From contig JACQCZ010000016.1 in assembly GCA_016201405.1 (NCBI GenBank), positions 23,798 to 87,797 of the forward strand: a stretch of 64,000 bases of DNA. The letters run 5' to 3'. The translations under genes and the position numbers were made by a program. The notes under the pieces are model-generated. The model worked only from the letters and a program-made list of their open reading frames with translations. It had not been told where the DNA came from and ran no database searches. This stretch comes from Candidatus Acetothermia bacterium (lineage in GTDB: Bacteria; Bipolaricaulota; Bipolaricaulia; RBG-16-55-9). Below, piece after piece: positions 20,826 through 53,507 of this stretch; the first letter of the stretch is position 1; every line of letters starts with the position of its first letter.

Positions 20826-22517
20826 CTACGTCTTCTTCTCGGATCTCTCAGCTTGGATGAAACCTTGAGAGCTCAAATATTCAAGGATGCTATTGGCTGC
20901 AGCATCGGCACTCATCTGGCTAGTATCGATACCCATCTCTGGATTTCTCGGGACTTCATAGGGATCATCGATCCCAGTAAATTCCTTAATGAGACCGGCA
21001 CGCGCCTTGGCATAGAGTCCCTTACGATCTCTCTCTTCGCAGACCTCAATTGGAGTAGAGACATAAATCTCAATAAAGGCCCCGTACGGAGAGATCATCT
21101 CCCGCACTTCAGTCCGAGTCACCTCATAGGGGGCAATGGGCGCGCAGATGGCAATCCCACGATTCTTGGTGATCTCGCTCGCCACATAGCCTATTCGCCG
21201 GATATTGATATCCCGATCTCTCTTCGAAAACCCCAGCTCGCTCGAAAGGTGCTTCCTTACGATGTCACCATCGAGCAACGTCACAGGTCGGGTCCCAATC
21301 TCCATTAGTTTAGCCATCACTGTCTGAGCAATGGTCGATTTACCAGCGCCTGAAAGACCTGTAAAGAAGATAGTAAAGCCCTGTGATTGCCGTGGTGGAT
21401 GCACCTTCCGCAATTCTTGAATCACATCCGGATATGAAAACCACTCTGGAATCTCAGTCCCATCTCGAAGGCGCTTGCGAAGCTCCGTTCCAGAGAGCGA
21501 AAGCACCTTGGCTCCTTGGGAAACTTCAGAGACAGCGACGTAGCGCTTTGAGTCTTCAAGACAGACCATCTCTTCAAATGCTTTAATCATGATGCCCAGT
21601 TCATTTTCATGACTCTTGGCTAGCTCCTGTGCTTCGTAGGGACCGTAGAATGGCTTGCCATCACTGCCGAGGCCAGGCCCTGCGTGATCTCTCCCAATAA
21701 TGAAATGAGTGCATCCATAATTCTTGCGAATGATAGCGTGCCAAAGGGCCTCCCGCGGACCAGCCATTCTCATGGCCAACGGGAGCAAGCTGAGCATTGT
21801 AGATTCTTGTGGATAGTGTTTTAGAATAGCCTCATAGCAGCGGACTCGTACAAAATAATCGATATCTCCAGGGCTCGTTCTCCCGACGACCGGATGAAGG
21901 AGCAAGTCAGCCTTCAGCTCTTCTGAAGCGCGCCGGGTCAATTCGATGTGAGCACGGTGCATGGGGTTTCGGGTCTGAAAAGCGACAATCTTCTTCCAGC
22001 CTCGTCTATTAAATTGTTCGAGAAGCTCTAATGGCGTATGACGCAAATGATTAAACGTATGATGAGGTGGAAGCTCGATTCCTTCTAGATGTCCCCCAAC
22101 ATAGACCGGATGCATCTGGTGGAGCAGACTGGCAACCCCCGGATGAGCAACATCGGTCGTTCTGAAGACCGCCTGAGCTTCGCCGTGCAGATCTGGCTTC
22201 CAGATATCGGAGATTTCCAGAATGGCAAGAGCCATCCCTTCGGGATGTCGAAGCACCATTCTGTCTCCACAGGAAATCTTGCCAGCAAATTCCTCTGTTA
22301 CATCAAGATTGATCGGAATCGGCCAGAGGGTGCCATCACCAAGTCGCATTTCCTGACAGACCGAGCGATAATCAATTTCCGGTAAGAAGCCGGTCAGAGG
22401 AGCAAAAGCCCCGTTGAGAAGCAATTCCAGATCCCAGATCTGCCTTTGGTTCAAATCCCAGGAGATCAGAGTAAGGGCTTCCTCCTTTAATTCACTCACG
22501 TTTGCCCAAGTTACCAT
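20826..22517 (-). CDS. Bifunctional sulfate adenylyltransferase (ATP sulfurylase) / adenylylsulfate kinase, i.e. a PAPS synthase
   Basis: ATP-sulfurylase motifs QTRNPMHRAHIELT and GRDHAGPG. The C-terminal APS-kinase P-loop is GLSGAGKST. Start moved to MVTWAN (ATG ending 22517). Confidence 0.9.
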   Translation of the reverse strand: MVTWANVSELKEEALTLISWDLNQRQIWDLELLLNGAFAPLTGFLPEIDYRSVCQEMRLGDGTLWPIPINLDVTEEFAGKISCGDRMVLRHPEGMALAILEISDIWKPDLHGEAQAVFRTTDVAHPGVASLLHQMHPVYVGGHLEGIELPPHHTFNHLRHTPLELLEQFNRRGWKKIVAFQTRNPMHRAHIELTRRASEELKADLLLHPVVGRTSPGDIDYFVRVRCYEAILKHYPQESTMLSLLPLAMRMAGPREALWHAIIRKNYGCTHFIIGRDHAGPGLGSDGKPFYGPYEAQELAKSHENELGIMIKAFEEMVCLEDSKRYVAVSEVSQGAKVLSLSGTELRKRLRDGTEIPEWFSYPDVIQELRKVHPPRQSQGFTIFFTGLSGAGKSTIAQTVMAKLMEIGTRPVTLLDGDIVRKHLSSELGFSKRDRDINIRRIGYVASEITKNRGIAICAPIAPYEVTRTEVREMISPYGAFIEIYVSTPIEVCEERDRKGLYAKARAGLIKEFTGIDDPYEVPRNPEMGIDTSQMSADAAANSILEYLSSQGFIQAERSEKKT

Positions 22518-22537
22518 CGTGCAGTATCCCTCCGTTT

Positions 22538-23116
22538 TTAATCTGAGCACTCCAGTTTTTTTATAAAATGGGCTGGTACCCCCCCAATAAGACACTGGCC
22601 CTCAGGAAAGCTCTTTGTCACTACAGATCCTGCCCCTACGACTGTCATTGCGCCCAGGTTGACTCCAGGGAGAATGACAGAGTTCATCCCAAGCCAACAT
22701 TTTTCGCCAATTATAACGTCTTCTGCAGGCAGATGGCGATTGAGATCACAAGGATCATGGTTGGCAGTGATCAGCCCCACATTAGGAGCGATGTAGGTTC
22801 CTTTGCCAATGACAATCTTGCCCGAAAAATTTTGATAGTAACAGCCAATGGTCTGGAAATTGTTCAAATCATCTGGATCAAAAATAAGATTTTCCCAGCG
22901 AGATATGACAATCAATGGACTCACTGGCCAAGGAACATGTCGATTGAAACCTACAATCTTCTGGATGAATATGGATCTCCAGACCCAGTACCATCCTGTT
23001 GTCTGTCCTTCAAAGTGCCGTCCAGTCAGGTATTTTCGATCAAAAAAGATAGGGCCTATCAATTTCAAGATTGGAATTACCAGCGATCGGAAGAGAGTCT
23101 TCGAGAGCCGGGGCAT
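22538..23116 (-). CDS. Hexapeptide-repeat sugar O-acetyltransferase (WcaF/MAT-like left-handed beta-helix)
   Basis: Hexapeptide repeats: IAPNVGLITANHDP...GEKCWLGMNSVILPGVNLGAMTVVGAGSVV. Confidence 0.75.
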   Translation of the reverse strand: MPRLSKTLFRSLVIPILKLIGPIFFDRKYLTGRHFEGQTTGWYWVWRSIFIQKIVGFNRHVPWPVSPLIVISRWENLIFDPDDLNNFQTIGCYYQNFSGKIVIGKGTYIAPNVGLITANHDPCDLNRHLPAEDVIIGEKCWLGMNSVILPGVNLGAMTVVGAGSVVTKSFPEGQCLIGGVPAHFIKKLECSD

Positions 23117-40934: not shown

Positions 40935-41996
40935 TCAATTCCAGGGAAGGACAAACTCCCAGTTGGGTCCCCTGAAGTAAGTCCCGATGATGACGAGCGC
41001 CAAGAAGAGGAGCATTGAGAATGTGAAGGCCATCACGGTGATGGGACGGGCACTCAGTCTTCTTCCTGGCAATGTCTTTCGGTCTCGCCTCCAAAACTCC
41101 AAGTAAGGCTCGATATACGGAATAGACATCCAGAAGAAGACGATGATCCCAGGCAGAATGACTCCACCAATCGAGATGGAGTTCAAGAAGCCACCTAGGT
41201 TAGGCGAGATTGCTAGCAGCTCTTGAATGCCCAGGAAATACCATGGAGCCTTCTCAGGATTGGGCGTAAATGTTGGCGTGGCAGCATGCTCTAGAGGTGC
41301 ATCGACCAGCAAGGCATAGACACTCAGCCCCCCCAGCAAGAAGAACAATACAGTGGCCACGACATAGAGATAATAGGGATAGGCCAATATCTCTTCGCGC
41401 TTTTCCATCTCGGCTGGGATGCGGCCCGAGAAGACTTTGATCATCATTTCGACCATGCGCTCGGTAAGGGGATGAGTAGACGGGATCTCACGCACCCGAT
41501 CTTCTTTGAGAAGGAATTCAAGAAGATCACAGAGCACGCGAAAATCAGCAGCGTCTCCACCACCATCGACTAGAATATGAACACGTCGCCGCAGATCTTT
41601 CAATCGCTTAATCGTGATCGCTTGCGAAGAATTGAATCGAACTTCATTCAGATGCTCAGCACAGTAATCAACAATGTCTGCAAGAAGGCCAGGATCAATA
41701 TCCATCGCCTCGGCCACTTCGTAGCCGGGGACTTCAATCTCTAAGTCTTCTGCAACTTTGACTTGACAGGAGAGGCGCCAACTCTTGGCGACTTTGTCTT
41801 TGAGCAGATCCTTCTCGTTGAAGTTGGGATCGCCGCCGCCCTTGAGAATGCGAACGGCACAGGTGGAGCAGGTCCCACGGCCTCCGCAGGTTGCGGGAAG
41901 GCTGCGGTTGTAGCCCTTCTCCTGAATGAATGTAAGGAGGTTTGTCCCTGTGGCAACTTCAAATTCCTCTTGGCCCAGAATTGTTACTTTAGGCAT
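40935..41996 (-). CDS. Fusion: a plant-type [2Fe-2S] ferredoxin domain, an unknown linker, and a cytochrome b C-terminal domain (subunit IV / PetD-like)
   Basis: N-terminus CGGRGTCSTCAV...C gives the 2Fe-2S Cys pattern. The C-terminal 160 aa carry three TM helices with the PEWY-like signature (NPEKAPWYFLGIQELL) of cytochrome b6f subunit IV. Confidence 0.7.
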   Translation of the reverse strand: MPKVTILGQEEFEVATGTNLLTFIQEKGYNRSLPATCGGRGTCSTCAVRILKGGGDPNFNEKDLLKDKVAKSWRLSCQVKVAEDLEIEVPGYEVAEAMDIDPGLLADIVDYCAEHLNEVRFNSSQAITIKRLKDLRRRVHILVDGGGDAADFRVLCDLLEFLLKEDRVREIPSTHPLTERMVEMMIKVFSGRIPAEMEKREEILAYPYYLYVVATVLFFLLGGLSVYALLVDAPLEHAATPTFTPNPEKAPWYFLGIQELLAISPNLGGFLNSISIGGVILPGIIVFFWMSIPYIEPYLEFWRRDRKTLPGRRLSARPITVMAFTFSMLLFLALVIIGTYFRGPNWEFVLPWN

Positions 41997-42918
41997 GTTG
42001 CGTGCTCGCCGATTTTACTCCGCTTAAGAGACTCTTCAATCTCTCGGTAACGGCGGATCCGCCTGGGAAACAGCCATCGGGTGAGGCTTTGCCTTGGGCA
42101 ACAGCCTGAGCAAACTGGTCGCAGGTCATCAAGCCACAGGCTTCGCAATCAAATCCAGGAAGCTGCACCCGAAGCTCTTTTGCAAGGGGTGTCATCTCAT
42201 GGCGACTAAAGACCGGCCAGAGGAGCATGAGCGGTTTATAGAGTCGAATGAGCATATCATTCTCGACCGGCATCTGACAGGCAATCACCCAGCCTTCATT
42301 CTTCTGACGGGGCGTCAAGACAGGGCCATAATTCTTATCGTCGAGATCCTGATTCTTTTGCAATACGCGCACTCGGCACGACGCGCATTCTCCTTGCGCA
42401 CTGCATTGGGTGAGGAGCTTGTAGCCGGCAGACTCCAGACCACGAATCAGCATCTCGCCCTGCTTGAGCGAGACAACATCTCCAGTATTTTCAATCTCCA
42501 CGAAACAGCGAGGTTGATGAACTTCGCGAGATTTCTTGAGTGTGTGCAGCAAAGTGAGCACCGATCCACCAATAAGCACCGGAACGAGCAGAGCAGAAAA
42601 TGTGGCAATCTCTGAGCTGTAAATTAAATATGCGATTAGACTCACAAGAAGCACAATTAACAGGACTTGAGCCCACGTGGGGGGGTCAGTCGTTTTGAAT
42701 TTCTCGAATAGAGCTTCAACGGCTAGAGCCACCAACTGGCATACAATCAGACCAACAGCAGCCGACTCGATGATTTGAACTAGACCTAGCTCAAACTGGC
42801 GGATCGTAAAGAAAACGATCAAAAATCCAAGAGTTCCAATGGCAATGGTCATCCAGCGCCATACCCACTTTTGCCCTTCCCATTCAGCTCTCACAAGTTG
42901 GACAGTCTTGGCACTCAT
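41989..42918 (-). CDS. RnfB-like electron-transfer subunit: a membrane anchor, a 2Fe-2S ferredoxin-like domain, and a PF04060-type Fe-S domain (no poly-ferredoxin)
   Basis: Two or three N-terminal TM helices. CSAQGECASCRV...C pattern. The C-terminal segment LPGFDCEACGLMTCDQFAQAV...SPDGCFPGG matches the RnfB/CdhE 'FeS' domain consensus. Confidence 0.6.
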   Translation of the reverse strand: MSAKTVQLVRAEWEGQKWVWRWMTIAIGTLGFLIVFFTIRQFELGLVQIIESAAVGLIVCQLVALAVEALFEKFKTTDPPTWAQVLLIVLLVSLIAYLIYSSEIATFSALLVPVLIGGSVLTLLHTLKKSREVHQPRCFVEIENTGDVVSLKQGEMLIRGLESAGYKLLTQCSAQGECASCRVRVLQKNQDLDDKNYGPVLTPRQKNEGWVIACQMPVENDMLIRLYKPLMLLWPVFSRHEMTPLAKELRVQLPGFDCEACGLMTCDQFAQAVAQGKASPDGCFPGGSAVTERLKSLLSGVKSASTQHA

Positions 42919-43955
42919 CGCGCTCGTCCATAGCTTCTCGGAGTGGTCAAGCGATTGAGCAGTGGAACAGAGGCGTTAGCGAGCAAGACAGAGAATGTGA
43001 CCCCTTCGTTGTCTCCAGCAACCGCCCGCAGCCCAAGCACCAAGAGGCCGATCAGAACTCCATAAATCAATTTTCCATGGAGAGTCATGGGACTGGTCAC
43101 AGGATCAGAGGCGATCAAGAATGCAGTAAATAGTAGGCTTCCTCCTAGAAGATGCAGGAGAGGTCCACCAATGAATACCGTAGGAAAGAGCATCTCCAGA
43201 AAAGCTTCACCAATCCCAACTGTGGCTAGGATCATGATCGAGACGCGCCAGTTTACAGTTCGCGTGAAGAGCATCCAGAAGCCTGCGAACAACATCAAAA
43301 TTCCAGACGTTGCTCCGATCGCACCTGGGACATTCCCGAGCAGAAGTTGTCCCGCGTCGTATGGAGAGCCAACTTGCATGACTATACTTAGTGGAGTTGT
43401 AGCCACCACTTGCGCATCTGGTGGTGCCCATACCGCAAAACCGCCCGGCCAACTTGAGAAGGGGACTGCCCAGTGCGTAGTCATCAATACCGGGAAAATC
43501 ACAATGAGCAAGGCTTTCCCAACCAAGACTGGGTTGAATAGATAAAATCCCAAGCCACCCAAAAGCTGTCGTGAGAGCGCCGCCAGCCCTGCACCAATCG
43601 CAACTATCCACAAGGGTAAGTTCGGAGGAAGTAAGAGGCTGAACAGGACGGCAATTACCAACAATCCGCTAACACGGCCACTGCCACGCAGCACTGAAAA
43701 GATCAACTCAATCACTCCCACAACAACCAGTGCCACCAGTATCACGGCCAGCACATGCAATCCAAAAAAGAAGATGCCACCCAGCACGGCTGGAGCGGCT
43801 GCAATGAGCGGCATCGTGAAAAAGCGCTGGACGTTTACGCCATCGCGAAGATAAGGCGGCCCCGAGACCGAGCGATCGCTGCCTCCGTAGAGCACTTCGT
43901 TTACGGCAGTAGCAACAACAGAGAAGTTGGACGAGCTCTTTGCAGACTGGCTCAT
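42915..43955 (-). CDS. rnfD: RnfD/NqrB-family membrane subunit
   Basis: About 10 TM helices and the conserved FMN-region motif SDPVTSP. Possible flavinylation-type G-A-T-S segment. Confidence 0.8.
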   Translation of the reverse strand: MSQSAKSSSNFSVVATAVNEVLYGGSDRSVSGPPYLRDGVNVQRFFTMPLIAAAPAVLGGIFFFGLHVLAVILVALVVVGVIELIFSVLRGSGRVSGLLVIAVLFSLLLPPNLPLWIVAIGAGLAALSRQLLGGLGFYLFNPVLVGKALLIVIFPVLMTTHWAVPFSSWPGGFAVWAPPDAQVVATTPLSIVMQVGSPYDAGQLLLGNVPGAIGATSGILMLFAGFWMLFTRTVNWRVSIMILATVGIGEAFLEMLFPTVFIGGPLLHLLGGSLLFTAFLIASDPVTSPMTLHGKLIYGVLIGLLVLGLRAVAGDNEGVTFSVLLANASVPLLNRLTTPRSYGRAR

Positions 43956-46156: not shown

Positions 46157-46789
46157 TTATCCCTGGCAGGGCTTGCAGTCCTTGCCCTCCGGCAAAACTC
46201 CCTTCACCATTTGACCCTGCTCCGGGTCAAAATATAGATCATGCCCCACCCCTACTCCTGCTAAACGACTCAACTCATCCGTCGCAGTTGTTTTGCCTTT
46301 GTCCACGATCAGACGCCCATCAGCAGAGAGACTGATCTCATAGAATGGCAAAGGTTTGGGAGCTGGCCCTCCGATGCGCTGTCCATTGCGTGCGAATACA
46401 CTTCCATGACAGGGGCACTGCGCGTGAACCACCGGGTAATCTGGGCTGGGTGGTCCAAACGGCTTGTATGAGCAGCCAAGGTGAGTGCAGATGGCCGAGA
46501 CCGCCTGAAATCCCTCTTGACTGCGAAAGATATAGACCTGGTATGTATCCAAGAGCTTCATGTCGCCAACCTGATAATCACTCGGTGGCCCTATGCTAAA
46601 GCTGGTCTTAGGCTCAAAGTTAAGCTTGGGCAAGATGAACGCAACTACGCTGGTAAACACACCACCCATCGTCAAAAGGAATGCGGTCAATCCAATACGG
46701 GTAAGAAATTTTCGGCGGGTGAATTGCTGCGCTGTCGGGGACTCTTCAAATCCAGATTGCTCGGTTATTTTTGGCTTTCTCTTGAACAT
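46157..46789 (-). CDS. Rieske [2Fe-2S] iron-sulfur protein with Tat signal
   Basis: Twin-arginine motif RRKFLTRIGL plus a TM anchor. Rieske boxes CTHLGC and CPCHGS. Confidence 0.85.
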   Translation of the reverse strand: MFKRKPKITEQSGFEESPTAQQFTRRKFLTRIGLTAFLLTMGGVFTSVVAFILPKLNFEPKTSFSIGPPSDYQVGDMKLLDTYQVYIFRSQEGFQAVSAICTHLGCSYKPFGPPSPDYPVVHAQCPCHGSVFARNGQRIGGPAPKPLPFYEISLSADGRLIVDKGKTTATDELSRLAGVGVGHDLYFDPEQGQMVKGVLPEGKDCKPCQG

Positions 46790-47087
46790 AATCGTTTTAG
46801 ATCCTCAGCATCGTATCCCCCCAAATTCAGCGTTTGTATGATCCTGATCATTCAAAGCAGTCACACAATCTTGCGAAAAATCGAGAATTTGAGGGGTTCA
46901 GACCGCATTATAGTGATTGATCCGTGAGGAGTCAATCGAAGGTTTATGTGTCATAAGATGGGAAAGAAAACCAGCATCGGCAGCCGATCATGGCTCGGAA
47001 TCGAAGAACCGATCTATCGTGGTCAGGCATCTTTTGTATAATAATGACCAACAAAATTTCGGAAATGAAAATGTCAAGAAGGAGCTT

Positions 47088-48568: not shown

Positions 48569-51142
48569 TCAGCGCACAACGACGACTTTGCGAATCACTG
48601 TCTGCTTTTGAAAGCCCGATGCACTTTTCGCAGTGATTACAAAGAGATAGACGCCATTGGCCATCTTATCTCCCATGGATTCGAGAGCATTCCAGCGCAA
48701 GGTCGATCCTTCTGTCTCAATGGCAAACCGCTGGCGGCCTGCAAGATCAAAGCCATGCACCTCGATGGATGAGATTCCCTGGCCCTCCACACTCAGAGTC
48801 CAAAGCGGGCCAGTTGAAGAAAGATTGATGGAACGCACTGAGAAGGCTTCAGCTGATTGCTGCGCTGGCGCCTGTTGTTGGATGATTGTAAATGGAATAT
48901 CTCGTGCTTCGGGAGAGAGCAAGAACTGCACATCTGGCCTCAGCTCAGCTGCGATCTTTTGATGAGACGCTGCAAGGTGAAGTCTCAAAATATTGGATTG
49001 CTTTGAGCCATTTCCTGGAGGAGCAATCATCAGAAAACGAACCTCGCCCCGCGCTTGGTCGATGGATGTAGCCAGAATCTTGTATTCTCCAAGGGCTTCT
49101 ATCTTCAGCACAGTTGTGCTGCGACCATCAAATAAGATTCGTCCCTGCACTCCGCCAATCGCACGTCCATCTGAGTTGATTTGAAGCGTGTACTCCCCTG
49201 CTGAGCTGGCTGGAATCAGCTTGATTTGGGCTGGCTCTGCTTGTGACCCGGCCATCCCCGGGAAGAGTCTCTGCAATATACTGAGCCAGACGGGAAGCAC
49301 GCTTTTCTCGCGATCAGACTGTGATGTTCTTGGCGTTGAAAGTGAGCTGCTTGTAATGGATGCAATGGATGCTTTGGCAATTGGAATCAAGTCCGCTGAG
49401 GTTAATGTTGTGCAATCAGGAATCGTCCCAGTCGCTGCCTTTGGCAGGGCTACGTCTGCGACAAGCTTCTGCGCATCGCTCAGCCCGGTGATGGCTGGCG
49501 GCTCATCAAAGCAGCCAAGGAGGGCCGTTGCTAACATGAGTACATCTTTGATGGTGGCACCATCATTCATGAGGTCCACATCTCCAAAGAGAGGGAGTAA
49601 GATGCTGCCGGAGATGACGCTCATCTGAGAGGTCAGATCGAGATCATCGACATCGAGAACTCTATCCACCTGAAAGATGAATGGACTCTTCTGACCTGGC
49701 TGTCCTTGTTTTGAAGTACGAATGTAAGCAATGACGTCAGGGGCTGGAATCCCCATTTTGGCCAAGTCAAGATGAGCTGGATCGATCGACAGCGTGAATT
49801 TTAATGATCCAAGCCGATTATCAATGTGAACGTCACTCACTTGATACGGCGAGACGGACGTGACCCCATCCACATGAACTACAGTCGCGTCAAATTGCAC
49901 AGATTGAGTCTGAACTTCGATCTTCCCTAACCCAGGGGAAGAAAATCCGACAACCTCCACTGGAAGATTCCCACCCGGAGACTGCACATCAAGAATGCGA
50001 AGCACACCGCTGCCTAGCATCACGGTATTCGCCGCCTGCACAATAAGATCTGTGGAAGAGTCAATGTCCGTGCCTGGTGGCTCTTGAGCGCTTAATACAG
50101 CCCTCAGATGAATCACGCGCCCCTTAAGTGCACTAATAGAAGGCGTAGCACGAACCTCGAAATCCAAACACTGCTCATCCGGAATAAAGAGACCTGGGGT
50201 GACGGACAGTGTGATGCCTGGTCCTCCGCGATTGAAGTCGGCTGTAAACCCCGGATCACCCGAGGTGATCTGCCCCCAAAGCTGTGGAATCCCCGAAATC
50301 ATATAGAGCTCGAACTTATCAAAATCATCAATCAGCGCACTGCCGAGTGGGCCCTGAGAGAGCGTCAGCGCATCGATCCGCAAGGAGTTCGCATTCGCAT
50401 CTTTATCGCAAACATGGAATCGCAGGGCGACGCCCGCTGAGCCTATCTTGATTGGAACAGGTGTAAAGTTCAGAAGAGTCAGGCTGTTGATTCCGCTGTT
50501 AGAGACATAGTCTTGATCGCTGTCCGTAGCCGCAAGGGTGAATGTCGTCGGAGTAGGAGGGCTGCCGATGCTCTCGGCGTATTGCAGAGTGACTTGAATT
50601 CTGACTGTCTTATTCTGGGCAGTATTCTGCAAGATCCCTGTCGGAGCAGTGAGCACAGCTACCTGGAACGTCTGCGTCCCATTATCGGGAATCGTATATC
50701 CACCCGCAGGAGTGACGTAAGCCTCAAAAGAGATATTCCCACCGCCAGGCGCCCCAGCAGGACATCCTGCCGGTGGAGCGCCTCCTGGCGCGGCTGTCGT
50801 CACTGGAGCCGCCACTGCCGTTCCAGTGCCATCAATGATCATCACGCTTGTAATCTCGGTCTCACTGGCCGAGCCTAAGTTTTGCACTAAAAAACAGTCA
50901 ATGGTGACGTCGCTCAAATCGTCCGCTTGCATGTCCGTATCTTTCGCTTTGAAGCTGAAAACGATCGACCCATCCCCCAAATCGGTCGGCGGGCCATCAC
51001 TCATAGGCGTATTGGCACCTGGCTCCAAATTGGTGCTTGGAGACAGAATTTCAGTGACATCGATCTGCCCGAGTGCCGTTTGCGAGATGCTAAAAAGAAG
51101 AAAGAGACTGAGCGCGACACGAATGATGGCTGATCTGGACAT
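48569..51142 (-). CDS. Large secreted surface protein (858 aa): N-terminal 'NLGSAS...ITSVMIIDG' domain, cohesin-like modules, dockerin-like module, T9SS-type C-terminal domain
   Basis: Signal peptide MSRSAIIRVALSLFLLFSISQTALGQ. Cohesin-like segments (VQFDATVVHVD...IDNRLGSLKF; QGRILFDGRSTTVLKIEALG...GEVRF). Dockerin-like Ca-loop GDVDLMNDGATIKDVLMLATALLG followed by ADVALP...LTSADLIPIAK. CTD ending ANGVYLFVITAKSASGFQKQTVIRKVVVVR. Confidence 0.7.
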   Translation of the reverse strand: MSRSAIIRVALSLFLLFSISQTALGQIDVTEILSPSTNLEPGANTPMSDGPPTDLGDGSIVFSFKAKDTDMQADDLSDVTIDCFLVQNLGSASETEITSVMIIDGTGTAVAAPVTTAAPGGAPPAGCPAGAPGGGNISFEAYVTPAGGYTIPDNGTQTFQVAVLTAPTGILQNTAQNKTVRIQVTLQYAESIGSPPTPTTFTLAATDSDQDYVSNSGINSLTLLNFTPVPIKIGSAGVALRFHVCDKDANANSLRIDALTLSQGPLGSALIDDFDKFELYMISGIPQLWGQITSGDPGFTADFNRGGPGITLSVTPGLFIPDEQCLDFEVRATPSISALKGRVIHLRAVLSAQEPPGTDIDSSTDLIVQAANTVMLGSGVLRILDVQSPGGNLPVEVVGFSSPGLGKIEVQTQSVQFDATVVHVDGVTSVSPYQVSDVHIDNRLGSLKFTLSIDPAHLDLAKMGIPAPDVIAYIRTSKQGQPGQKSPFIFQVDRVLDVDDLDLTSQMSVISGSILLPLFGDVDLMNDGATIKDVLMLATALLGCFDEPPAITGLSDAQKLVADVALPKAATGTIPDCTTLTSADLIPIAKASIASITSSSLSTPRTSQSDREKSVLPVWLSILQRLFPGMAGSQAEPAQIKLIPASSAGEYTLQINSDGRAIGGVQGRILFDGRSTTVLKIEALGEYKILATSIDQARGEVRFLMIAPPGNGSKQSNILRLHLAASHQKIAAELRPDVQFLLSPEARDIPFTIIQQQAPAQQSAEAFSVRSINLSSTGPLWTLSVEGQGISSIEVHGFDLAGRQRFAIETEGSTLRWNALESMGDKMANGVYLFVITAKSASGFQKQTVIRKVVVVR

Positions 51143-51377
51143 TTTCAGGAGTACTCCATCTCTCACCAGAATTTCACCGCCTTCTATTGTGTCAAAAGAG
51201 ACAGACAAAGGAGAAGAACATCCAACACCATACTGTGTTACGGCGATCACTCCCTCAGGGGATAACAAAGTGATGCGTGTGACAGACGTCACATCGATTC
51301 GGCGCATAGAATCATGCTATACTCAAGGGCAGAATCAAAACGATGGCCATGCGCCAGATGAGGAGGGCGACAATACG

Positions 51378-53507
51378 ATGAAGGCCGCCCGTGGGAAAAT
51401 TGTCTCTCTTATATTCTTCTTTCTATCGATAATTGCTTTTATTGGCCTGGGGCAAACGACTGCCTCGACCAATACCGTGGATATTGCGAAAGACAAGGTG
51501 GACTTCACCGTCTTCTCCCGAGATGGCCAGGATGGCCTGGGAAGCCCAAACACAATGACATTGGGAGATTTTAATAATGACCAGAACATTGACCTTTTGA
51601 TCGGAGCCCCAGGAGGGGACGGCCCTGACGACCGCCGCAAAGATGCAGGCGAAGCTTACATCGTCTATGGGCGCGATAAAGACACGTTTGTACCAGAACT
51701 TAATACAGATGGGATTCCTGGCCCTGACGTAGTCATCTATGGAAGAGACTTGGGAGATCTGCTTGGAAGCGGCGTCGCAGCTGGTGATGTAAATGGTGAT
51801 GGCATTGATGATATCATCCTTGGAGCGCCTGGAGGCGATGGTCCTTCCAACGGATATTCCGGTTTGGGCGAAGTTGTAGTAATATTTGGTGGTCTGACTC
51901 TTCCATCAAGAATAGATTTAGCAAAGACAAAAGAAAACTCTATTATTTTTAATAATGTCCAAGAAAGTCGGTTCGGCACTGCAATCACCGCGCCGGATCT
52001 TAATGGCGATGGCATTGACGACATCGTTATAGCAGATCCTTTTGACATCAGTAAAGGAAGGCACCGATCCGGAGCCGTATTTGTAATTTTTGGAAGAAGG
52101 GATCTCCCTCAGCGTTTTGATATAGGCTCCAATCGACCTGGCTTAAGCCCTGATGTCCGAATCTTAGGAGCCAATGCGGAGGATCAGATTGGAATCTCGC
52201 TTGCTAAAGGGGATATCAACCACGATGGTGTGGAAGATGTCGTCATTGGCGCGCCATTTACAGATGGCCCAAACAATGACCGCACTGACGCCGGAGAGAC
52301 TTACGTCATCTATGGAAACTTCCACCTGCCTGCAACAATTGATTTGGCAGCTACCAGCGCTGACGTCACAGTCTATGGTGCCGATGCACAAGATGAGCTG
52401 GGGCTCTCTGTATCAGCGGGAGATGTCAACGGGGATAAGACGCAAGATCTGCTCATCGGCGCTCCCTTCGCCAGCGGAATTGATAAACTGAAGGGATATT
52501 CTGGCGAAGCCTATGTCATTTATGGAAAACCGCTCCTGCCATCCATTATTGATTTGAATATGACGAGCGCAGACTCCAGAATCTTAGGAGCATCTCCACT
52601 CGATAATTTAGGGTCATCTGTGGCTGCGGCTGACCTCAACGACGACGGCCTCAACGATTTGATATTAGGTGCTCAGGGTGGACGAGGTCCCGATGGAACA
52701 AGAGCCAGAGCTGGAAACGTCTATGTCATTCGCAGCCCTGGCAATCTCCCTCCTCTAATTGATCTTGGCAAGAATGAATTCAACTTGGTTATTTACGGAG
52801 CAAAGACGGGCGACAATCTGGGCAGCGCACTTGCCGGAGGCGACCTTGGCGGCAAGGGGAACGGCTTCTTGATGATGGGCGCAAACGGAGTAGATTCACC
52901 AGCAGATGGCCCCGATGCCGGTGCAATCTATGCTCTCTTTGCCAAAGAGCTGATCGGAGGAGGCACTCCACCAACACCCACAACGTGCGTCAAAGGCGAT
53001 GTCGATTGCGATGGGAAGATTACGATTATCGATGCACGCATCGTCTGCGAATCGGTGCTCGGCATCCGAAAGCTGACCGCTAAAGAAGTGGCCCTGGCTG
53101 ACGTAGCTGAGCCGTTTGGCCAGATCACGCTGGCAGACGCCTTCAAGATTGCGCAAGTCTCCGTCGGAATTGGAACGATTGAAACGAAGACGGGAACTTC
53201 AGTGAGCCAGGCTCTCGAAGCGGCCTCAGCACTCCACATACATCGCTGGGGAATGTTAAGCCATGGCAGCCAGATCGAATTCCGGGCGCTCGGCTCGGGT
53301 GTGGAAGCGGTCAAAGTAGAGGTCTTTACGATGGATGGTCGGCCGATTTATAACAGCCCCTGGGCGCAGGGCGACCGGGTGCTTTGGATGTGGCAAGGAT
53401 TAGATAATAAGTTTGCAAACGGCGTTTATCTCTATGTGATTCAGGCTCAGGGTATTGACGGACGGCTGTCTCGTAGCGAGGTCTTAAAGGTGATCGTTCT
53501 GAGATGA
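51378..53507 (+). CDS. Secreted seven-repeat FG-GAP (integrin-alpha-like beta-propeller) protein with a dockerin-like module and T9SS-type C-terminal domain
   Basis: RBS AGGAGGG. Signal peptide. Seven repeats of the form GDxNGDGxDDxxxGAP..DG....AGxxYVIYG. Dockerin-like GDVDCDGKITIIDARIV...ADVAEPFGQITLADAFKIAQ. CTD ...ANGVYLYVIQAQGIDGRLSRSEVLKVIVLR. Confidence 0.8.
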   Translation: MKAARGKIVSLIFFFLSIIAFIGLGQTTASTNTVDIAKDKVDFTVFSRDGQDGLGSPNTMTLGDFNNDQNIDLLIGAPGGDGPDDRRKDAGEAYIVYGRDKDTFVPELNTDGIPGPDVVIYGRDLGDLLGSGVAAGDVNGDGIDDIILGAPGGDGPSNGYSGLGEVVVIFGGLTLPSRIDLAKTKENSIIFNNVQESRFGTAITAPDLNGDGIDDIVIADPFDISKGRHRSGAVFVIFGRRDLPQRFDIGSNRPGLSPDVRILGANAEDQIGISLAKGDINHDGVEDVVIGAPFTDGPNNDRTDAGETYVIYGNFHLPATIDLAATSADVTVYGADAQDELGLSVSAGDVNGDKTQDLLIGAPFASGIDKLKGYSGEAYVIYGKPLLPSIIDLNMTSADSRILGASPLDNLGSSVAAADLNDDGLNDLILGAQGGRGPDGTRARAGNVYVIRSPGNLPPLIDLGKNEFNLVIYGAKTGDNLGSALAGGDLGGKGNGFLMMGANGVDSPADGPDAGAIYALFAKELIGGGTPPTPTTCVKGDVDCDGKITIIDARIVCESVLGIRKLTAKEVALADVAEPFGQITLADAFKIAQVSVGIGTIETKTGTSVSQALEAASALHIHRWGMLSHGSQIEFRALGSGVEAVKVEVFTMDGRPIYNSPWAQGDRVLWMWQGLDNKFANGVYLYVIQAQGIDGRLSRSEVLKVIVLR

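Follow-up and report, generated by a model that had tools for sequence, protein, structure and literature searches.

Closest described systems and the locus studied

The C-terminal half of split cytochrome b, known as PetD or subunit IV (PF00032) and represented in Geobacter by ExtQ of the ExtOPQ-type cluster, consists of three transmembrane (TM) helices, E to G, with the N-terminus inside and a Qo-site ef loop containing W-Y-F, and its gene lies in one operon with the genes of a four-helix cytochrome b6 and a Rieske protein. The same description applies to a protein encoded in a stretch of 64,000 nucleotides (nt) from Candidatus Acetothermia bacterium (contig JACQCZ010000016.1, positions 23,798 to 87,797), referred to here as the window. 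This protein differs, however, in having about 200 extra N-terminal amino acids (aa), which include a [2Fe-2S] ferredoxin domain (Fer2), in having APWY for PEWY, and in an 8-aa insert after QELLA. Moreover, the gene of this fusion of Fer2 with subunit IV (Fer2-SUIV) comes last, behind Rnf genes, and does not adjoin cytochrome b6.

The fused Fer2 can be compared with the N-terminal [2Fe-2S] domain of NqrF (PDB 7xk3_F, 8a1t_F), with which it shares an identity of only about 27-35%; unlike NqrF, the fusion has no FAD/NADH-binding domain, and it is anchored by the C-terminal subunit IV, where NqrF has an N-terminal helix. With the Rnf complex (RnfABCDGE) the locus has in common homologues of RnfC and RnfD, to which related genomes add RnfG, RnfE and RnfA in the order C-D-G-E-A, as well as a membrane-anchored Fe-S protein at the position of RnfB with an RnfB-type FeS domain. 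In contrast to Rnf, the window contains no RnfA, RnfE or RnfG, the protein at the B position has an NqrF-type Fer2 in place of the polyferredoxin, and the set is bracketed by Rieske/cytochrome b6 on one side and by Fer2-SUIV on the other. A [2Fe-2S] ferredoxin also acts at the stromal (n) face of the cytochrome b6f complex, near Qi, in cyclic electron flow dependent on ferredoxin and ferredoxin-NADP+ reductase. There, the ferredoxin is soluble and acts transiently via haem cn, whereas in the present locus it is covalently linked to subunit IV, haem cn is missing, and an Rnf flavoprotein takes the role of partner.

The Rieske/cytochrome b complexes of anammox bacteria (Kuste4569-4574, Kustd1480-1485) possess an n-side NAD(P) oxidoreductase, and bifurcation at Qo has been proposed to drive NAD(P)+ reduction (PMC12954380). 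They resemble the present locus in the Rieske/cytochrome b core and in an n-side Fe-S chain to an NAD(P)-binding flavoprotein, a chain that is predicted here from synteny and topology. The anammox modules are a [4Fe-4S]/FAD protein, multihaem cytochromes c encoded in the operon, and haem cn together with a predicted extra haem b (PMC12954380), whereas here RnfC and RnfD (ancestrally RnfCDGEA) are combined with two Fer2 domains of the 2Fe-2S type, of which one is fused to subunit IV, and there is neither a cytochrome c gene nor the Cys of haem cn. By analogy, the bifurcating anammox complexes appear to be the nearest functional analogue, built from unrelated modules.

Literature searches turned up neither the fusion nor the unusual subunit in the RnfB position. 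Co-clustering of Rnf with Rieske/cytochrome b was mentioned in one sentence in 2012, and the ‘Rnf’ of these genomes was interpreted as a canonical ferredoxin:NAD+ pump (PMC3267732). Rnf was reported to be absent from the type I metagenome-assembled genomes (MAGs) from Oman (Colman et al., 2022; PMC9586279). One locus from a type I bin, NSHQ14B.Bin.6 (also NSHQ14B.2017.Bin6; L019, JAJHSH010000054.1), carries RnfCDGEA inside the Rieske/cytochrome b cluster, which was probably missed earlier owing to the absence of a canonical RnfB.

The fusion gene and its distribution

The Fer2-SUIV gene is real, conserved and restricted to one lineage. It forms a single open reading frame (ORF) with an ATG start and no internal stop codon, and its start shares 8 nt with the end of the upstream gene. 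Full-length fusions of 347-357 aa with identities of 51-96% are carried by about 50 clusters (at 90% identity; data of JGI, ENA, NCBI and Logan) and are present in 25 species-level genomes, all of them MAGs of Bipolaricaulota, Acetothermia or ‘Fraserbacteria’. The identical protein is recorded on four contigs, one of which is 115.7 kb long (run SRR12113389). Beyond the full-length clusters, the E-value jumps from 1e-112 to 1e-23, and from there on only the cytochrome b part aligns. When 1.84 billion representative proteins were searched with a hidden Markov model, the complete architecture was found solely in the family’s own representative; one 199-aa protein consisting of Fer2 and the adjoining helical module (P0296) was also recovered, and essentially all others among the matches listed align only at profile positions ~195-351. 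P0343, in which the Fer2 region matched in three stretches, was rejected as another fusion, as it is a tandem-ferredoxin protein.

The first-pass annotation, made from the sequence alone, had proposed the fusion and had named the false joining of two genes as one possible objection to it. An artefact of this kind, in which an assembly error or a frameshift connects a ferredoxin gene with a subunit IV gene, could draw some support from the split version found in one sublineage (L023 and L024), where a 199-aa ORF of Fer2 and module is followed by a 46-nt spacer with the Shine-Dalgarno sequence AAGAGGAGG and then by a stand-alone subunit IV of about 154 aa. However, this split form has its own stop codon besides the spacer and the ribosome-binding site, and it nests inside the fused clade. 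As the same uninterrupted ORF recurs at full length across the clusters and species, and the exact protein on several contigs, the artefact is refuted and can be given practically no weight.

The N-terminal domain of the fusion matches Fer2 (PF00111) at residues 5-81 with 43.7 bits against a cut-off of 21 and has the features of the beta-grasp fold. Its cysteines follow the pattern CGGRGTCSTC...C with the spacing C-x5-C-x2-C, and all four of them (C37, C43, C46 and C77) are invariant in 36 orthologues in the alignment of the fusion family. The initial designation as a plant-type ferredoxin could not be upheld: the corresponding model TIGR02008 (fdx_plant) yields 22.6 bits against a cut-off of 81.15, and the plant-type spacing C-x4-C-x2-C is absent. 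The match to the NqrF model TIGR01941 is limited to model positions 41-121, with 59 bits against a cut-off of 295. The fused ferredoxin is NqrF-type and not strictly plant-type.

For the C-terminal part, assignment to subunit IV with three TM helices, as originally proposed, was borne out by several lines of evidence. Hydropathy and AlphaFold2 (AF2) agree on TM helices at residues ~207-230, 273-299 and 318-340. A profile of the membrane part, built with unfused relatives, has as its top solved structures subunit IV of b6f (1q90_D, 5.7e-11; 1vf5_B, 7.4e-10), followed by residues ~205-339 of bc1 cytochrome b at ~1e-7 to 1e-8. In NCBIfam, residues 206-352 match ExtQ (5.8e-14), a protein that resembles subunit IV and pairs with the cytochrome b ExtP, the 52.5 bits lying under the ExtQ cut-off of 150. 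The membrane part alone gave nothing significant in a single-sequence phmmer search against the PDB and no match to Pfam PF00032; because these comparisons failed and a profile was needed, the C-terminal part is best regarded as a divergent member of the subunit IV family.

The Qo-site motif NPEKAPWYFLGIQELL is found in the fusion, and TPNPEKAPWYF is invariant across the family. The first-pass annotation described it as PEWY-like; it aligns as APWY: the position of the canonical Glu is occupied by Pro, a Glu stands three residues upstream (PEKAPWY), and W-Y-F is invariant. As unfused subunit IV proteins from other phyla also have the variant TPNPxKAPWYF, it is not peculiar to the fusion. The PEWY variants PDWY and PVWY are likewise known from other lineages.

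Between the two domains lies a region of about 100-105 aa, for which no Pfam family was found, whether within the whole protein or with the module alone. In this respect, the first-pass annotation of a linker without a recognisable family was right. It is, however, predicted to be a folded module and not a loose linker, because it has conserved residues (PGYE, KRLKDL, R138, GGGD and R192) and AF2 predicts 4-5 helices in it, with predicted local distance difference test (pLDDT) values of 70-84. Conserved cofactor-ligand residues are absent from the module in the family alignment. Outside the fusion family, the module was found only in the split protein P0296 and in L023/L024.

Topology

According to the positive-inside rule, the Lys and Arg counts of the fusion (5 in the N-terminal flank, 1 in the Qo loop, 6 in the F-G loop, RRDRKTLPGRRLSAR, and 1 in the C-terminal tail) place the N-terminus inside. 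There is no signal sequence and no twin-arginine translocation (Tat) motif at the N-terminus. Because of this charge pattern, the missing export signals and the homology with subunit IV of canonical topology, Fer2 and the helical module are assigned to the cytoplasmic (n) side, in agreement with the earlier proposal. The Fer2 and FeS domains of the RnfB-position protein and RnfC are likewise cytoplasmic in the topology analysis. The end of helix E that bears Fer2 and the module contributes to the Qi pocket in bc1.

Gene organisation of the operon

The fusion gene is the last of six minus-strand genes that abut or overlap, in the order Rieske - cytochrome b6 - RnfC - RnfD - TM-Fer2-FeS (RnfB position) - Fer2-SUIV (Table 1). 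The gene order with RnfC, RnfD and the second Fer2 protein is conserved in every related locus with enough flanking sequence. All four haem-ligand His residues of the cytochrome b6 half are retained, and the position of the haem cn Cys35 is occupied by Trp71. The Qo and b-haem machinery looks intact, because besides these four His residues the Tat-like motif and the cluster boxes of the Rieske protein are kept. The Rieske protein of the window ends in DCKPCQG (46157-46180, minus strand), a CxxC motif that is absent from the L025 orthologue. Compared with cyanobacterial b6, the cytochrome b6 half has an n-side N-terminal extension of about 36 aa, which is conserved (IDKLLL..LRRSR.WLSIFRRE.LPQTEAD) and could be a docking surface for Fer2 and the helical module.

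The RnfC-like protein is clearly recognised by TIGR01945 (rnfC; 322 bits against a cut-off of 246, NCBIfam) and by matches to RnfC structures in the PDB (2e-53), and it retains both 4Fe-4S motifs as well as NAVETEPY. The protein in the RnfB position contains the FeS domain PF04060, with Fer2 in place of Fer4, and reaches 43 bits with TIGR01944 against a cut-off of 68.7; polyferredoxin domains for soluble ferredoxin were not found in it with Pfam and NCBIfam. Its family is as narrow as that of the fusion (55 clusters in the same lineage). RnfG, RnfE and RnfA genes were not found anywhere in the 64-kb window, apart from the remnant of RnfA described below, and a soluble electron partner is not encoded near the operon. 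By its gene content, the operon is neither a canonical Rnf, since A, E and G are absent here and B is non-canonical everywhere, nor an NQR, since there is no FAD/NADH domain.

Table 1. Features of the Fer2-subunit IV operon in the window, with the loci of the split form.
Feature	Position	Strand	Remarks
Candidate operon promoter	46907..46935	-	TTGACT-17-TATAAT, 11/12; upstream of the Rieske gene; consensus match only
Rieske [2Fe-2S] protein, 210 aa	46157..46789	-	TRRKFL Tat-like motif, one TM helix, CTHLGC and CPCHGSVF boxes
Cytochrome b6-type N-terminal half, 258 aa	45373..46149	-	4 TM helices
RnfC-like flavoprotein, 473 aa	43952..45373	-	RnfC_N, Nuo51-type FMN/NADH domain, two [4Fe-4S] motifs
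RnfD-like membrane subunit, 346 aa	42915..43955	-	Pfam NQR2_RnfD_RnfE 5.9e-69
RnfB-position protein, 309 aa	41989..42918	-	4 TM, RnfA C-terminal remnant; NqrF-type Fer2 142-218; RnfB-type FeS 253-285
Fusion gene, 353 aa	40935..41996	-	NqrF-type [2Fe-2S] ferredoxin, helical module and cytochrome b6f-type subunit IV
[2Fe-2S] ferredoxin domain (beta-grasp), residues 1-92	41721..41996	-	Ligands C37, C43, C46, C77 encoded in 41766-41888
Helical module, residues 93-200	41397..41720	-	4-5 helices, lineage-specific
Subunit IV, residues 201-353, helices E, F, G	40935..41396	-	Predicted N-terminus in, Qo loop out, RRDRKTLPGRRLSAR loop in
Qo-site loop motif TPNPEKAPWYF, residues 244-254	41235..41267	-	b6f PEWY aligned to APWY (1q90_D, 1vf5_B)
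Split fusion loci	L024:8001-9111; L023:6728-7835		P0296 is a third example

Long and short forms of the cluster

The related loci fall into two forms. In the long form (L008-L022, L025), the order is Rieske - cytochrome b6 - RnfC-D-G-E-A - ‘B’ - Fer2-SUIV, with RnfG (FMN_bind), RnfE and RnfA (Rnf-Nqr family) between RnfD and a TM-Fer2-FeS protein of 218 aa. In the rooted tree, the long and the short form are two sister clades, and the window belongs to the short clade, without RnfG, RnfE and RnfA. The tree leaves the polarity between the two undecided. Remnants of RnfA, however, decide it in favour of deletion: in L014, a C-terminal remnant of RnfA is fused to the TM-Fer2 protein (hhalign 96.5%, E 7e-10), and in the window the N-terminal ~135 aa of the RnfB-position protein (42515-42918, minus strand) match RnfA residues 119-168 (hhalign 86.9%, E 4e-6), without the Cys ligands of RnfA. 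Because of these remnants in L014 and the window clade, the short form is a deletion derivative of the full RnfCDGEA cluster. Since the fusion occurs in both clades, it must be older than the split between them. The flavinylation motif of RnfD is canonical (KATPL) in the long-form genomes but degenerate in short-form ones, and it reads ATTPL in the window (residues ~184-190; 43390-43420, minus strand), which suggests that RnfD serves as no more than an anchor after the loss of RnfG.

The fused Fer2 and the Fer2 of the RnfB-position protein are each other’s closest paralogues, with 49% identity within L025, which points to duplication of the neighbouring domain. The lineage with the split fusion nests in the short clade and never with the long clade, with weak internal support (39-41 of 100 bootstraps), and the split is most simply explained as a secondary fission. 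The split shows that Fer2 and the module make up a unit of their own, which nevertheless remains linked to subunit IV.

Several loci show further variation in these proteins. L025 (4672-8486) and L008-L022 have RnfE and RnfA that each retain the two Cys expected for an intramembrane 2Fe-2S cluster, and their RnfG bears the flavinylation motif TGATYTS. In L014 (7150-8510), a protein consisting of the RnfA remnant, TM helices and Fer2 but without FeS is followed by a soluble 185-aa Fer2-FeS protein, so that three Fer2 domains, including that of the fusion, stand in succession as an intermediate architecture. The most divergent long-form genomes (L021:7812-7955 and L022:7777-7911) contain an RnfB-position protein with an apparent second, duplicated FeS domain, whose database relatives have 260-278 aa. 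The RnfB-position protein itself (window 41989-42918, minus strand; L025:7830-8486) is a hybrid of the input subunits of Rnf and Na+-NQR, with NqrF-type TM and Fer2 and an RnfB-type FeS domain, and may have a bearing on the origin of NQR from Rnf.

A proposed n-side electron wire

The fusion and the operon together probably form an Fe-S wire on the n side, whichever way the electrons flow. We infer that the fused Fer2 bridges the haem b chain and the Rnf-like subunits; this fits because the two Fer2 domains are closest paralogues, the RnfB-position protein has no polyferredoxin, and the split halves are adjacent. Cofactor occupancy, the contacts between the subunits and the direction of electron flow, as we infer them, would be as follows. 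The fused 2Fe-2S centre would face the n side, where its domain is attached directly to helix E at the Qi pocket, and the wire would run haem bH/Qi <-> Fer2 (subunit IV) <-> Fer2 and [4Fe-4S] (RnfB position) <-> two [4Fe-4S] and FMN (RnfC) <-> NAD(H), with RnfD anchoring RnfC at the membrane. In the direction that we favour, tentatively and with a little less than even confidence, bifurcation at Qo drives the reduction of NAD+ through this wire. Quinol would be oxidised at Qo, one electron passing via the Rieske cluster to a high-potential acceptor in the periplasm whose gene lies outside this operon, and the other via bL and bH through the ferredoxin wire to NAD+, so that bifurcation would drive the uphill formation of NADH. 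In the long form, the low-potential branch would feed into the full Rnf core (RnfA/E, G, D, C) through the RnfB position, in the energy-conserving direction. Direct cytoplasmic transfer to RnfC would take its place in the short form of the window, because RnfG, RnfE and most of RnfA are lost.

This direction is preferred for three reasons. The Fer2 proteins of the long form sit on the electron-input side, corresponding to RnfB and NqrF, and in Rnf and Nqr electron flow from RnfC to B consumes the ion gradient, so that the reverse direction would spend the gradient on an exergonic reaction. Cluster-bearing relatives also possess a quinone-based chain, high-potential acceptors and a Nuo of their own: Ca. 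A. autotrophicum has succinate dehydrogenase, cytochrome c, cytochrome c oxidase (COX) and Nar, and the type I Oman MAGs encode Nuo, Nar, Nrf and COX (PMC9586279). With Nuo present in these relatives, a non-pumping route from NADH to quinone would be wasteful. Finally, the anammox complexes of Rieske/cytochrome b and NAD(P) reductase have been interpreted by the same reasoning (PMC12954380).

Some observations weigh against electron flow from quinol to NAD+. The box CPCHGSVF, with Phe for Tyr, suggests a menaquinol-type Rieske protein of moderate potential, which would leave little driving force towards NAD+ (-320 mV), and still less if the long form pumps ions. Neither a c-type cytochrome nor another acceptor for the Rieske protein was found in the operon or in the 64-kb window. 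The FMN loop of RnfC has diverged, with ALGKSGLP in the window for GxGGAxFP and GKSG or GGQAG for GGAG, and the flavinylation motif of RnfD is degenerate in the short form (VTPL, LTPL, QTPL, MPPL). In addition, the AF2 model of a chimera of cytochrome b6 and the fusion, meant to show how close Fer2 lies to haem bH, is of low confidence (pLDDT 65.4; predicted template modelling score 0.35; cytochrome b6 helices at pLDDT 40-60).

Transfer from the Rieske protein to the periplasmic FMN of RnfD/RnfG was considered as an explanation for the absent cytochrome c. It was rejected, as a Rieske protein with CTHLGC/CPCHGS is far too positive for flavins or NAD+, and it is also disfavoured by the decay of the RnfD flavinylation motif in the short clade.

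Alternative functions of the complex

The most serious rival is the same wire operating in reverse, with NADH oxidised at RnfC and electrons passing through the Fe-S domains to the Fer2 of subunit IV and on to haem bH/Qi, where they would supply one of the two electrons for the reduction of quinone. This would make the complex an NADH:acceptor oxidoreductase that is complete in itself and runs a Q cycle, comparable to Mitchell’s original Q cycle, in which a dehydrogenase feeds centre i, and to the ferredoxin-fed Qi of cyclic flow in b6f. Such a reaction would be downhill throughout, from NADH at -320 mV to the Rieske acceptor. The tethering of Fer2 beside the Qi end of helix E agrees with it, as does the absence of haem cn, which leaves a bc1-like Qi open to a donor from the n side. 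In the long form, however, flow from RnfC to the RnfB position would use up the ion gradient, which is senseless for an exergonic reaction; the loss of RnfG, RnfE and RnfA in the lineage of the window removes this objection of backward flow through an ion-coupled core, so the reverse direction is most plausible for the reduced form found here. Cluster-bearing relatives already encode Nuo, and the anammox equivalent of this direction was rejected by its authors on grounds of energy loss (PMC12954380). Taken as a whole, reverse operation seems doubtful to us, and less probable than electron flow from quinol to NAD+.

It is rather unlikely that the fused Fer2 serves as an entry for a soluble low-potential donor such as ferredoxin, hydrogenase or pyruvate:ferredoxin oxidoreductase, which would make the complex a ferredoxin:quinone reductase or a device of the cyclic type, with RnfC/RnfD as a separate unit or a scaffold. 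The host organisms do use the Wood-Ljungdahl pathway, with a metabolism based on reduced ferredoxin, and since the ferredoxin-binding polyferredoxin part of RnfB is missing, another Fe-S domain might provide the docking site instead. But the genes of RnfC, RnfD and the two Fer2 proteins are strictly conserved together and remain translationally coupled where RnfG, RnfE and RnfA have been lost, no soluble partner is encoded nearby, and a Fer2 tethered to the membrane is in a better position to relay electrons internally than to dock a donor. More improbable still is a fused Fer2 off the main electron path that senses redox state or helps to assemble or stabilise the complex at its n-side face. 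The helical module without cofactor ligands does resemble a docking or scaffold element, and the docking geometry is modelled with low confidence in the chimera. This reading is opposed by the four cluster ligands, which are invariant across 51-96% identity, by the paralogy of the fused Fer2 with the relay Fer2 of the neighbouring gene, and by the natural wire that two serial Fe-S domains form beside the clusters of RnfC.

Bringing the parts of the preferred reading together, with electrons flowing from quinol to NAD+, gives an ‘Rnf-bc’ complex, a class of respiratory machine not recognised before, in which two NqrF-type 2Fe-2S domains would firmly wire an Rnf-derived NAD(H) module to Rieske/cytochrome b on its n side and the low-potential electron from Qo would reach NAD+ and not Qi, ancestrally through an ion-translocating RnfA/E-G-D core, while the NqrF-type TM-Fer2 protein at the place of RnfB would represent a surviving transitional stage between the Rnf and Na+-NQR architectures. 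In its entirety, this picture is speculative and may well be wrong in one part or another.

Remaining genes of the window

The remaining genes of the window are polysaccharide and surface-protein genes and are uninformative on respiration. Positions 1-35000 are taken up by a large minus-strand block of the polysaccharide/O-antigen type (Polysacc_synt_2, DegT aminotransferase, Wzy_C, glycosyltransferases, flippases, UDP-sugar dehydrogenase), and a fused ATP-sulfurylase/APS kinase is encoded at 20826-22595. Two ORFs of 912 and 893 aa lie on opposite strands (48569-51307, minus; 50826-53507, plus) and overlap by about 480 nt. The plus-strand ORF has FG-GAP repeats and is followed downstream by surface proteins with PKD/FlgD-Ig domains. 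A 1255-aa ORF downstream of the pair has no Pfam match.

Significance

Metabolic reconstructions of Bipolaricaulota/Acetothermia change, as their ‘Rnf’ has no ferredoxin-oxidising RnfB and would be set in a quinol-oxidising complex. Few energy converters are as conserved as Rieske/cytochrome b complexes, and exceptions to the rule that the low-potential electron returns to quinone at Qi are few and unproven, with anammox foremost. The fusion system would be a second, independently built case, with an Fe-S relay covalently joined to the n side of the complex and with a strict genetic linkage to an NAD(H) flavoprotein. With six genes and no multihaem proteins, it is also simpler than the anammox system. 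The NqrF-like Fer2 in the RnfB position bears on the evolution of Na+-NQR from Rnf. Since three natural variants exist, with the ion-pumping Rnf core, without this core, and with the fusion split, the question of whether bifurcation at Qo can deliver electrons to NAD+ becomes directly testable.

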